Shown here: piece by piece, positions 36,757-39,857 of the stretch
How the letters are laid out: each line of letters starts with the position of its first letter
Position numbering within the stretch: the first letter of the stretch is position 1
The notes under the pieces: generated by a model
Told to the model about the DNA's origin: nothing
What the model saw: the letters and a program-made list of their open reading frames with translations, nothing else
Database searches by the model: none
Made by a program: the position numbers and the translations under genes
NCBI GenBank assembly: GCA_054600435.1
Contig: BAAIJX010000017.1
Coordinates: forward strand, 248,001 to 312,000
Length of the DNA: 64,000 nt
Reading direction: 5' to 3'
DNA from: Neophaeotheca triangularis
Lineage: Eukaryota

Positions 36757-39700
36757 ATAGTACCTAAGGAGTCTACTCTAAAGCGCCTATAGGCGAGTTC
36801 CTAAACCGGCTCCGGATTAGGTAGTTCGAATAAACTAGTAGCTCCTAAAAGCCCTCGCCTTACCTATAGCAGCTAGCCTACTACGCGCCCTACTACTACC
36901 TCGGCCGCGCCTACGACTATAACCGCGCCCGCGCCCGACACTACTATAGTAGCGAGGTCTACCGATACGAGCGTCTACCGAAACTAGGGAGTAACTAACG
37001 ACTAGGGAGCTCCTATACTCGACACGTAGCGATATACCTTGAGCTTTTCCGGTATATAGCTTAAAAACACTATAAAGGAGATGCTGTAAAAGATAACTAC
37101 TATAACCGACCTATACGCCTAAGATGCTACGTAGCTCGCTATGCTTAAGATAGTGCATAAAGCTAGCGAAGACTAGGACATGTTAGCGTACATAGTAGAT
37201 AACTATACACGAAGCGACCCTATATAGGCCCCGAAAAGAGCTAAGTTTAGGAAGGTTAAAGACATGGCTGCCCGTAGCCTCGCGACCCGTATATTACTCG
37301 AAAGGAGAACTTCCTCTCTTCGTGTAGGCTAGTTAATGCCGCCGAAGCCGTCGCTTCGGAAACCATTAACCGCATCTTTATAGCTCTAGAGAATGTGTCC
37401 CGGGGATTTATCGATCTCGCTAAATATACCTAGACATCCGAGTAGATGTTCCGGAAGCTACGTACTACTACTAGTATCTAGCTTATACGTAGGCTTGTTA
37501 AGGAAACTCCTATAGGTTAACCGACTAGTAGGAAAGGGAAACTACTCCGCGCGTTCTTCTACACTAAGGCCGACTTTAATTACGCGGTAGGTATAGACTA
37601 GATATCTAAGTTTACGACTAAGCGGACTACCGACGAGCTATAGGACATAGTAGGGGAACTAATTGAAAAATACAAAAGGGTACGCCTAAATGATCGCGTC
37701 CTATACCGAGGATAGGATAGCTAGCTCTCTTTCCTTACCCGTCCTATAGCCCCGACGATACCTAAAGCCCTAGAGACCCTACGACGAGAAGGGCGCTTCG
37801 TTAGTACTATCTCCCCGAGCCCTATAGGATAGCCGCGATCTCGAAACACTAGTATGCCACTAATGCCTACGATTAAGGAGGATGTAGCATCTCTAGTGTC
37901 TACGTCGGAGGAGCTTCGTCGCTAGCTCTAGGGGTATTACTAGCTAATGTAGCCCTCGCCTACGCCTACGTCTACTACCTTAGCCCTTCGTACTCGTACT
38001 TATACCCGGTCTACTAGTGTAGGAACGTTAGCTCCGTCCCCGGGCATGTTAGCTCTACCCCCGGGCATATTAGCTATACCCCCGGGTATAGCCCTAATGC
38101 AAGTAGTACGAGGACCCTAGCTTAGCGAGTTACCCTCTCTAAAGCCGGAAGAGATCCGAGTAGTTATAGAGGCCTAGTTTGCTAGTAATGCCGCATGCGG
38201 TAGTCTACGCGGCGGCCGATATACGTGTAAGGTAGATAAGATAGCCCTACTATAGTTACGGGTCATGCTTAGAGCCGATAACGACTAGCGAACCGGTTTC
38301 CGTATTGCCGTAGAAGATAGGGATCGTATAGAGTTATGTACTAGCTATAGTACCTACCACTATAGCGTGTACGCGACCTACCGGAGACTAGTAGCGTAGA
38401 GTCTTAGGCTAGTTATCTAAGGGAAAGATACGAAGACAACCGACGACTACATCTTCTACATCGCGAAACTCCCGAAGCAATCCTAGAAAAACGTCGTTCG
38501 TGGTAGTATCCGCTAGTTTCTAAACACCGAAGTCTAACGCCTACTAGGGATCTTAGCTAACGTTAATAACCTAGAGACTTTCGCGTACAAACCGGTTAAG
38601 TCTAGCGTAATACGCTACCTCGACAATGACTAGAAAGCGAGGATTACGGAAGGACTCGGCATTACGGTCGCCTAGCGCAAAGAATAGGAAAGGAACGGTA
38701 CTATTAACATTCCGGATTTATTCCCCGAGCTACTAGAGGTTAAGGACCTAATCAATAGCGAGTTTAGCATGTACGACGCCTACCTATAAAACAATATGTC
38801 TAATAGGGGCTAGTGTAGAAATATGTACTACAGCCTAATTTAATAGTACCTTCGCTAGAGCCTAGTGCTAATCCTACTATATGCTCTCTTACGCGATAAC
38901 GGCTTACTTTAGCTAGTGTCCTACCCGTATTACACTAAGAACTAGCACCCTAGGGACTCTACTAGATTTAGGCATATCGATTTGAACCCGGTGTTTACAT
39001 AGAATAACGGTACCGGCGTGTATACTATTTAGGGTAGCGTTAGCATCCTTAATGAGTTTAAGGACGACTATACTATAGTGGTTAAGGGGATATACTAATG
39101 CCTAGAGGAGTGGACGGACTTCCTCGTTACTAATAACCTAGACTATAAGAAAGAGATTATAGCTGTCGACGACACGAACCTGCCGAAAGCTTAGCTCTTA
39201 GCCCGGGGTTTAAAGTAGTAGCCGGTCCCCTATAAGGCCTTCGAAGTTCGCGTTTCTAACCTACGCCTACCCTATAGCACTACTACGTCAAAAGCCGTTC
39301 GCTAACATATAACCGTCCTACCCTAGTTCGTAGGAATCGACCGAGACTATAAGTACCTATAGAATGCCGCTAGTAGAAAGTAGAGCGATATTACTACTAC
39401 ATACCGCGACTTCGTGCCTAGCCCGTTAAGTGCCTCTAGTTACACTACTAAGTATAGAGCTCCTCGTGCACTATTTCCCGCGACCCTACATCTAGCGGTA
39501 TAGGATGCCTTATCTAGAGTAGCCGTCGGCGAATTACGGTATACGAGCCCTAACGTCTAGTAAGTACTACGCACTATTACTACGGAGAGCCCGCGTTATA
39601 TCTAGAAGTACATTTAGGAAATCCGGGATAACGCTATTAAGGCGTACGAGCTCGCCTAGACATATTAGCGAGACGAAGAGAAAAGGGTGTTTTAGAATAA

Positions 39701-39857
39701 GTCGTTCTACCGTTCGGAAAGTTCTAGCTCCGCTCTACCGCTATAGGATAGAGGCAAGAGGGGAGCTATACTAGTAGGATAGGAGGAGCTTATAGAGGAA
39801 ATGTAGGATAAGGAGAACTTAATAGTGGTTTAGGGTAGCGCGGCTACTACGGAGTAG
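36757..39857 (+). pseudogene. Element B extra ORF (~1000 codons) with C-terminal Fe(II)/2-oxoglutarate dioxygenase-like (PhyH-type DSBH) domain, RIP-mutated
   Basis: Single frame from ~37300 to the stop at ~39857, with stops only at RIP-type TAG/TAA codons. The 5' part (36757-~37290) is offset by one frame. Motifs: LVSYPYYTK, FRHIDLN (HID intact at 38973-38981), I(Q)GSVSIL.E..DD(C)T.VVKG(MH), P(C)KAFEVRVS..RLP(HG) (39273-39278), (R)ITVLP(W)FV. Confidence 0.7.

Follow-up and report, generated by a model that had tools for sequence, protein, structure and literature searches.

A 64,000-nucleotide stretch of the Neophaeotheca triangularis genome (contig BAAIJX010000017.1, positions 248,001 to 312,000; hereafter the window) contains a Ty3/gypsy long terminal repeat (LTR) retrotransposon, here called element B, which carries a third gene, ORF3, on the plus strand at 36759-39857, between its integrase and its polypurine tract, as established by frame reading and homology. 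The window copy was inactivated by repeat-induced point mutation (RIP) and is, judged from its sequence, a non-functional relic; the interest lies in the family that it revealed. In that family, an active-looking, selected oxygenase gene is carried in at least two unrelated kinds of mobile element, gypsy elements and Helitrons. We consider the best explanation, with a probability of roughly 70%, to be that the third gene of B was a selected accessory oxygenase of the PhyH type that aided the element.

The ORF3 frame of the window copy comprises 1033 codons and is interrupted by 70 stops, all of them TAA or TAG and none TGA. Each of the six frames of this stretch contains 70-100 stops; stop counts therefore cannot single out the ORF3 frame, which was established through homology. 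ORF3 was translated with X at the stops, and intact relatives were used for alignments and folds. When the X-read translation was searched with phmmer against 1.84 billion representative sequences, 382 matches were obtained at E ≤ 1e-3, of which 205 reached E ≤ 1e-10 and 29 reached E ≤ 1e-30, which bears out the proposal of an initial annotation, made from the DNA letters only, that coding-like sequence lies between pol and the polypurine tract and 3' LTR. Homology runs through residues ~600-1010, and the N-terminal region is weakly conserved.

Along the plus strand, ORF3 contains a Pro-rich linker encoded by a 21-nucleotide tandem repeat of 2.9 copies (38027-38086, Tandem Repeats Finder), which the initial annotation had rightly described as about three repeats. 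The linker is followed by a putative zinc module of CxC plus CxxH (38220-38381), recognised by column conservation in relatives, and by a PhyH-like Fe(II)/2-oxoglutarate (2OG) oxygenase domain (38568-39641), delimited by alignment and by tblastn to residues 677-1033 of ORF3 from L043, one of 79 loci recovered when metagenome contigs were scanned with the family alignment (loci are given L numbers throughout). The codons at 38220-38228 now read TAT ACG TGT (Y-T-C) and those at 38370-38381 encode Y-A-T-Y, whereas relatives have C-x-C and C-x-x-H in those columns; the positions earlier read, after reversal of RIP, as CTC and CATH of a zinc site thus fall on the conserved Cys/His columns. Sequence and alignment likewise agree with the earlier reading of an unmutated H-I-D at 38973-38981 and of TAT (Tyr) in the distal-His column at 39273-39275. 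The Arg that had been counted about 10 residues past the distal His was misplaced: it lies two residues upstream of the true 2OG-binding Arg column (consensus R850, window numbering), which is His in the window copy. Because the distal His and the conserved Arg are both lost, the window ORF3 is a dead copy.

The kinds of change in the domain were compared at 62 columns within residues 600-1010 that are kept in at least 17 of 19 relatives. The window agrees with the relatives at 38 of the 62, and the majority of the 24 disagreeing columns reflect C-to-T or G-to-A changes, the RIP kind: H to Y four times, C to Y twice and W, Q or R to stop six times, together with D to N, G to S, G to R, P to L, A to V and R to H. 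Nine of the 27 stops within the domain fall on columns in which Q or W is the commonest residue, and the remainder on variable columns.

Relatives of ORF3 are mostly 800-1000 amino acids long and have in common the CxC...CxxH motif and a C-terminal domain of ~340 residues. A search with one relative, P0002, yielded 115 matches; those with a named source are Pezizomycotina hypothetical proteins, from Rhinocladiella, a Chaetothyriales species, Penicillium, Aspergillus, Coleophoma, Alternaria, lichen-forming fungi and Geoglossum, which we take to represent Eurotiomycetes, Dothideomycetes, Leotiomycetes, lichen-forming fungi and Geoglossum. A precomputed PF05721 (PhyH) label is attached to 15 of the 115, and when 18 relatives were scanned directly, the Pfam PhyH family was found in six, at or above its 22-bit cut-off in four (29.9, 22.8, 22.5 and 22.2). 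None of the 18 matched Tet_JBP at E ≤ 0.01, an AlkB-type family or DUF1479. One relative, P0116 (1289 amino acids), has a Ulp1 (Peptidase_C48) domain fused at its C-terminus.

Conservation within the family falls on the residues expected of a metalloenzyme. In 58 aligned sequences, the first His of the triad is kept in 54, the Asp in 57, the distal His in 52 (Tyr in four) and the Arg in 57, so that the distal His, which had been expected in intact forms, is present in most relatives; from this residue conservation we infer catalysis by the family. In the Cys/His module, compared in 60 sequences (alignment A4), C14 never varies and at least 90% retain C16, C61 and H64, a pattern which suggests that the module probably binds metal, namely zinc.

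To place the fold, AlphaFold models were built of the C-terminal part of the intact, transposon-borne ORF3 of L043. Model 1, from 58 aligned sequences, gave a predicted local distance difference test score (pLDDT) of 81.6 and a predicted template modelling score (pTM) of 0.77, with low values confined to the C-terminal tail; the longer model 2, which includes the Cys/His module and used 60 sequences, gave a pLDDT of 93.1 and a pTM of 0.91. The models contain a double-stranded beta-helix (jelly-roll) core. Foldseek returned 249 PDB matches at E ≤ 1e-3; all those listed are 2OG oxygenases, headed by SnoN, EvdO1, GriE, proline hydroxylase H11, YbiU and EctD. When the models were compared with 48,161 representative chains by VIA-align, the best Z scores were those of YbiU (4rgk; 19.6 and 19.8, the latter spanning 278 residues) and of Candida albicans GIG2/DUF1479 (6akz; 18.5 and 19.6), the best structural neighbours at 11-12% identity in spite of the missing DUF1479 match; human PHYH (2a1x) scored 13.7-13.8, human PHYHD1 (3obz) 12.9-13.1, and many PhyH-type chains 13-15. 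PhyH-type chains top all three structure-match listings, and neither a TET/JBP nor an AlkB chain is among the fold matches listed. In the whole-model search, no listed chain matched the first 140 residues of model 2, the part that contains the Cys/His module. Searched by sequence with phmmer, the window ORF3 gave only chance-level matches to PDB sequences; in a profile search of the same sequences, the family Arg aligns with the HGS...RRT motif of AviO1 (4xaa). Fold and residue conservation together place the ORF3 family among the PhyH-type Fe(II)/2OG oxygenases, to which it adds a Cys/His module. The initial annotation had proposed a double-stranded beta-helix oxygenase of PhyH, AlkB or TET type with HxD...H plus Arg; the L043 models and their structural matches support that fold, and among the matches listed it is of the PhyH type.

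A stop-free frame runs through the domain in 46 of the 79 loci. The ratio of nonsynonymous to synonymous substitution (dN/dS), which had been suggested as a check on open copies, was estimated for 16 close pairs; two lacked an intact frame and six had saturated dS, and the eight usable pairs gave 0.09-0.20, with Helitron-borne copies at 0.11-0.19. These ratios indicate that the family is under purifying selection, with its catalytic residues kept.

ORF3 also lies downstream of gypsy pol, on the same strand, in elements other than B. In L043, an open frame of 2250 amino acids encoding gag, protease (PR), reverse transcriptase (RT), RNase H (RH) and integrase (INT) is accompanied by an open ORF3 of 1223 amino acids; Pfam places the aspartyl protease at residues 829-918, RVT_1 at 1288-1461, RNase H at 1524-1652 and Integrase_H2C2 at 1779-1833. 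The last 277 bases of this contig have no match to its first 800, the contig ending too early to tell of a 3' LTR. A decayed element in L015 retains LTRs at 469-725 and 10725-10973, pol at 4002-7151 and ORF3 at 8037-10577. Pol is found upstream on the same strand in L072, L078 and L063 as well; L022, L023 and L026, one sequence found three times, have only an integrase remnant there, and weak integrase fragments occur upstream in L020/L021 and L035. Among the 23 loci with at least 3 kb of upstream sequence, gypsy pol or integrase lies upstream on the same strand in 10 (seven strong and three weak matches), which amount to seven distinct sequences, five strong and two weak. The same pol-then-ORF3 order in five distinct metagenome sequences refutes a one-off capture. 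In L022, a 290-nucleotide inverted repeat (92% identical; 2245-2534 and ~12962-13251) brackets the decayed integrase and an open gene of 986 amino acids.

The five alignable integrases of this pol-ORF3 lineage are only 30-42% identical to one another, and two further gypsy-type elements of the window, A and C, gave no match to the B-lineage integrase at E ≤ 1e-3; for these reasons the association of pol with ORF3 is taken to be old and lineage-specific, and the comparison shows that a single, distinct lineage of gypsy pol has long had ORF3 as a component. The pol and ORF3 trees are partly congruent, setting the window's B (WINB), L043 and L015 against L072 and L078, although five integrases are too few to decide.

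The dioxygenase gene is carried by Helitrons as well. In L045, L046 and L040 it is immediately preceded, on the same strand, by a Helitron RepHel gene (DUF6570, Helitron_like_N, PIF1), so that the 23 long-flank loci divide into 10 with pol or integrase, three with RepHel and 10 with neither. An uninterrupted stretch of 7738 bases that takes in RepHel and the dioxygenase gene is 78% identical in DNA between L045 and L046, and L046 shows a tandem unit, opening with the end of the preceding one; from this repeat it follows that the dioxygenase gene is inside the repeated Helitron unit. Helitrons in opposite orientation adjoin the gene in L034 and L036, the latter also with a DDE_1 transposase. 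The initial annotation had suggested testing whether homologs consistently sit between a gypsy integrase and a 3' LTR; with gypsy pol or integrase upstream in 10 of the 23 long-flank loci, and Helitron and other contexts besides, the dioxygenase family is not specific to gypsy elements and crosses transposon classes.

Other neighbours were identified by a Pfam scan of 54 of the 167 frames of at least 130 amino acids from nine loci, the longer ones being chosen. RecQ-like or OrsD helicases lie upstream on the same strand in L038, downstream on the same strand in L007 and L008, and on the opposite strand in L009 and L052. The gene and RecQ-like helicases, some with OrsD, thus occur in four arrangements (L038, 583-7132; L007, 155-8417; L009, 1809-7456; L052, 9140-17034); these copies may adjoin subtelomeric helicase genes or belong to an undescribed element. 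A gene with an rva_4 integrase core adjoins in L002 and L066, and DUF6589 in L039. In L002 (6515-9541), the rva_4 gene is found together with a conserved frame of 405 amino acids, of unassigned family, just upstream of the dioxygenase gene; this frame is 70% identical in L001 (2-913), and the rva_4 gene recurs at 6640-7629 of L066. In L012 (518-4354), an open frame of 1279 amino acids with no Pfam match precedes the dioxygenase gene on the same strand; a weakly similar relative of this frame ends L003.

A tree of the domain was built from 65 of 80 sequences with a domain match, the 15 with a best segment shorter than 250 residues (L063 and L078 included) being dropped. The window copy groups with L043 and L075 (SH-like approximate likelihood ratio test, SH-aLRT, 97), with a long-branch warning, and the four copies linked to Helitrons group as a single clade (99). 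The scatter of the LTR-linked copies means that either the gene changed carriers repeatedly or copies of unknown context hide a simpler history.

The element from which the family was recognised is well delimited. B spans 20174-40237 on the plus strand, from a 5' LTR at 20174-20528 (direct repeat families D1 and D5), which starts with TA and ends with CA, to a 3' LTR at 39882-40237 with TG...CA ends. The two LTRs are 92-93% identical, and the TA start, against TG in the 3' copy, is a RIP-type change. Direct reading places a 4-bp target-site duplication, CTAC, at 20170-20173 and 40238-40241, and the polypurine tract, AGGGAGGGA, at 39873-39881 on the plus strand, abutting the 3' LTR. No primer-binding site was recognisable after the 5' LTR of the window's B, possibly because RIP has blurred it; in the relative L015, TTGGTGC stands immediately after the 5' LTR. 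Within pol, all on the plus strand, the aspartyl protease (23335-23700) was located by tblastn with residues 830-954 of the L043 polyprotein (E 7e-10), the region of its Pfam gag-asp_proteas match; reverse transcriptase and RNase H (32286-33893) by Pfam RVT_1, RT_RNaseH and RT_RNaseH_2 on the X-read frame and by tblastn to L043 pol residues 1168-1702 (E 2e-99); and integrase (34191-35519) by Pfam Integrase_H2C2 and by tblastn to residues 1717-2147 (E 7e-54). The Ty3/gypsy order PR-RT-RNase H-INT is present in the window's B and in the intact L043. Between RNase H and integrase, the pol frame of B contains a 66-nucleotide tandem repeat of 2.7 copies (33895-34075), which codes for a recurring Gly/Leu/Pro-rich stretch.

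A spacer of ~1.2 kb with no coding signal separates the integrase of B from ORF3 and contains repeats, among them two copies, found by pattern search, of a 23-nucleotide palindrome (35737-35759 and 35894-35916). This palindrome gives 12 strand-matches at seven sites of the window (20385, 20449, 24195, 35737, 35894, 40094 and 40158), with none expected from 100 shuffles; it is present twice in each LTR of B and once in an 81-nucleotide tandem array (23943-24223) after the protease. It could be a shared regulatory site and, by inference only, an internal promoter element.

B belongs to a three-deep nest of gypsy-type LTR elements, A, B and C, all on the plus strand. The outer element A is defined by LTRs found as direct repeats at 15444-15657 and 42030-42243; B is inserted in its integrase, the frame of which resumes beyond B in both translation and sequence. 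Element C (24437-32201), assigned by gag and pol motifs in translation, is inserted in B, which it splits between protease and RT; its LTR pair, D2 (24437-24660 and 31978-32201), is 224 nucleotides long and 93% identical. A and C differ from B in pol lineage. B is one bona fide Ty3/gypsy insertion, which RIP has inactivated and a nested element interrupts. The nest occupies a block of RIP-mutated repeat DNA from ~14 to 44 kb of the window: between 14001 and 44000, TpA/ApT is 1.76-2.43, against 0.47-1.01 outside the block, and (CpA+TpG)/(ApC+GpT) is 0.23-0.58, against 1.06-1.39. These dinucleotide ratios bear out the RIP that had been assumed for the region; RIP of the block is real. The flanks are occupied by ordinary fungal genes, namely Nic96, GDT1, a tubulin-tyrosine-ligase-like gene, an RNase H2 subunit, MCM10, an NTE/patatin lipase and glycine dehydrogenase. 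For the last of these, the named sequences most similar, at ~80% identity, come from Lecanosticta, Vermiconidia, Peltaster, Zasmidium, Zymoseptoria and Hortaea, all Dothideomycetes of the Mycosphaerellales/Capnodiales group.

We propose that the third gene of B, after gag-pol and before the polypurine tract, would have encoded a protein of ~1000 amino acids in three parts: a poorly conserved N-terminus, the CxC...CxxH module and the C-terminal PhyH-type oxygenase. ORF3 may have been expressed from a subgenomic or internally started transcript, and it would have been kept as an accessory enzyme that raised the element's own success; probably, the gene is kept because it is helpful to its carrier. 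The mechanisms by which these carriers transpose are unrelated, so the benefit most likely has to do with the host control of repeats that they share. The most plausible route would be that a host molecule restraining transposons is oxidised (hydroxylated or demethylated), candidate targets being methyl marks (on DNA, RNA or histone) and silencing-machinery proteins. The initial annotation's suggestion of a nucleic-acid or chromatin oxidase, possibly countering 5mC, RIP or heterochromatin silencing, stands only as a candidate. A narrower form of this proposal, which we hold only tentatively, is that the enzyme is a shared counter-defence tool of Pezizomycotina transposons, traded among gypsy elements, Helitrons and other selfish elements; it would then remove or block a silencing mark, or disable a silencing or RIP factor.

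Several observations weigh against an accessory oxygenase kept by transposons for their own benefit. Pfam detected no family on the window ORF3 at E ≤ 10 and none on L043 ORF3 at E ≤ 0.01, and the best match of the profile to PDB sequences, AviO1, had an E of 0.16. Among solved structures, those closest are PhyH-type enzymes that act on small molecules or are uncharacterised, which would allow a metabolic role. Immediately upstream, on the same strand, 10 of the 23 long-flank loci lack both gypsy pol and RepHel; the seven LTR-linked rows of the domain tree need at least four label changes and are not one clade; and no fused pol-dioxygenase protein longer than 1632 amino acids was found, which is weak evidence. 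The open 986-residue ORF3 of L022 stands beside a decayed integrase, as might also a gene that serves the host. Finally, the genomic contexts come from metagenome contigs rather than from complete fungal genomes.

Some of these points would be accounted for if the family consisted of host genes, encoding a small-molecule or protein hydroxylase in repeat-rich or subtelomeric DNA, of which the transposon copies are side branches. The metabolic character of the nearest structures, the 10 long-flank loci lacking pol or RepHel directly upstream and the open frame in L022 favour this, as do hypothetical proteins on long contigs, for example of Rhinocladiella mackenziei, Penicillium frequentans and Coleophoma crateriformis. 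In the loci lacking pol, however, most nameable neighbours are of mobile or repeat type (Helitron, DDE_1, RecQ/OrsD, rva_4), many clusters comprise several sequences from short contigs, and one relative is fused to a Ulp1 protease domain, a domain common in transposon proteins. We therefore regard a host gene family as unlikely. Comparably improbable is a passenger, a host PhyH-like gene captured by a gypsy element and separately by a Helitron with no benefit to either. Captured genes are known on Helitrons (PMC4289320) and on some LTR elements (PMC5408684), and the LTR-linked copies do not form one clade in the domain tree; yet elements with integrases only 30-42% identical carry the gene at full length and in a constant position and strand, ORF3 is open in L043, dN/dS is 0.09-0.20 with Helitron-borne copies included, and a useless 3-kb cargo would be expected to decay in a retroelement. 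Passenger and host family together take about a quarter of the probability.

It is very doubtful that ORF3 is non-catalytic, a structural or RNA-binding particle protein, env- or gag-like, with the oxygenase fold as a scaffold. The models do match a subunit of the trypanosome RNA-editing RESC (8fnc chain 14; Z 15.3-15.4), and the position after pol is the usual place of env-like genes, but retention of the triad and the 2OG Arg in 52-57 of 58 sequences, at ~30% family identity, is hard to explain without catalysis. That ORF3 is foreign to B, as a separate insertion or an assembly chimera, can be dismissed for practical purposes: the repeat-bearing, non-coding spacer of ~1.2 kb after the integrase would allow it, but no repeat pair brackets ORF3 within B, B has a single LTR pair with a target duplication, and the same order with a comparable spacer recurs in L015 and L043.

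The general idea of a transposon-borne 2OG oxygenase is already known. Giant Ty3/gypsy elements of Phalaenopsis orchids contain a frame for an AlkB-type 2OG oxygenase that demethylates N6-methyladenosine (m6A) in RNA in vitro (PMC9289625). As here, an extra 2OG-oxygenase frame lies in a gypsy LTR element, and it was proposed to counter host surveillance; there, the host is a plant and the enzyme AlkB-like, whereas here the hosts are Pezizomycotina, the enzyme is PhyH-like with CxC...CxxH, and Helitrons are carriers too. In fungi, TET/JBP genes have been reported on eleven lineages of DNA transposon, such as Kyakuja, Dileera, Zisupton, hAT and Helitron, by a survey that states explicitly that none was found on retrotransposons (PMC12730594). 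These dioxygenases resemble the present family in having passed among unrelated transposons, Helitrons included, and are thought to aid escape from silencing; they belong to another oxygenase family, with hosts in Pucciniomycetes, Agaricomycetes and Pezizomycetes (PMC12730594). By analogy, the orchid and TET/JBP parallels suggest an anti-silencing role.

Among enzymes off transposons, YbiU, GIG2, PHYH and PHYHD1 share with the modelled ORF3 family the fold and the metal and 2OG ligands, at an identity of only 8-12%; the Cys/His module, the long N-terminus and carriage by transposons belong to the ORF3 family. Demethylation of 2'-O-methyl nucleosides was recently reported for PHYHD1-type enzymes (PMC12709175), and nucleoside chemistry is therefore within reach of the PhyH fold. 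The LTR retrotransposons of bdelloid rotifers also have extra frames that are found in other element types, in animal hosts (PMC5408684). A Blastomyces genome paper that treats both dioxygenases and gypsy expansion was set aside, as its dioxygenases are metabolic genes unrelated to elements. The main text of the 2011 survey 'LTR Retrotransposons in Fungi' records no oxygenase and confines its mention of additional domains to complex nested elements. The full-text literature searched, outside which lie most subscription journals and Repbase-type reports, yielded no account of a PhyH-like oxygenase gene carried by fungal LTR retrotransposons or by Helitrons; within the same scope, the earlier statement that such a gene is undescribed in fungal Ty3/gypsy elements holds. 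As far as we have seen, the enzyme family, the host group, the fungal retrotransposon carrier and the Cys/His module are new.

The ORF3 family would be a third, unrelated oxygenase family on transposons, beside TET/JBP and AlkB, both of which are read as anti-silencing weapons, and its hosts are fungal lineages best known for RIP and for genome defence based on DNA methylation. With intact copies in L043 and many open relatives, its function is directly approachable with recombinant protein. Were ORF3 a metabolic passenger, it would still clearly exemplify an extra gene that has persisted for long in an LTR element of fungi. Should a silencing mark or factor be its substrate, this would be a new target in fungal genome defence; and if the counter-defence proposal is true, the family would be an ascomycete, retrotransposon-capable counterpart of transposon-borne TET/JBP, and would implicate a mark or pathway with which no PhyH-type enzyme has yet been linked.

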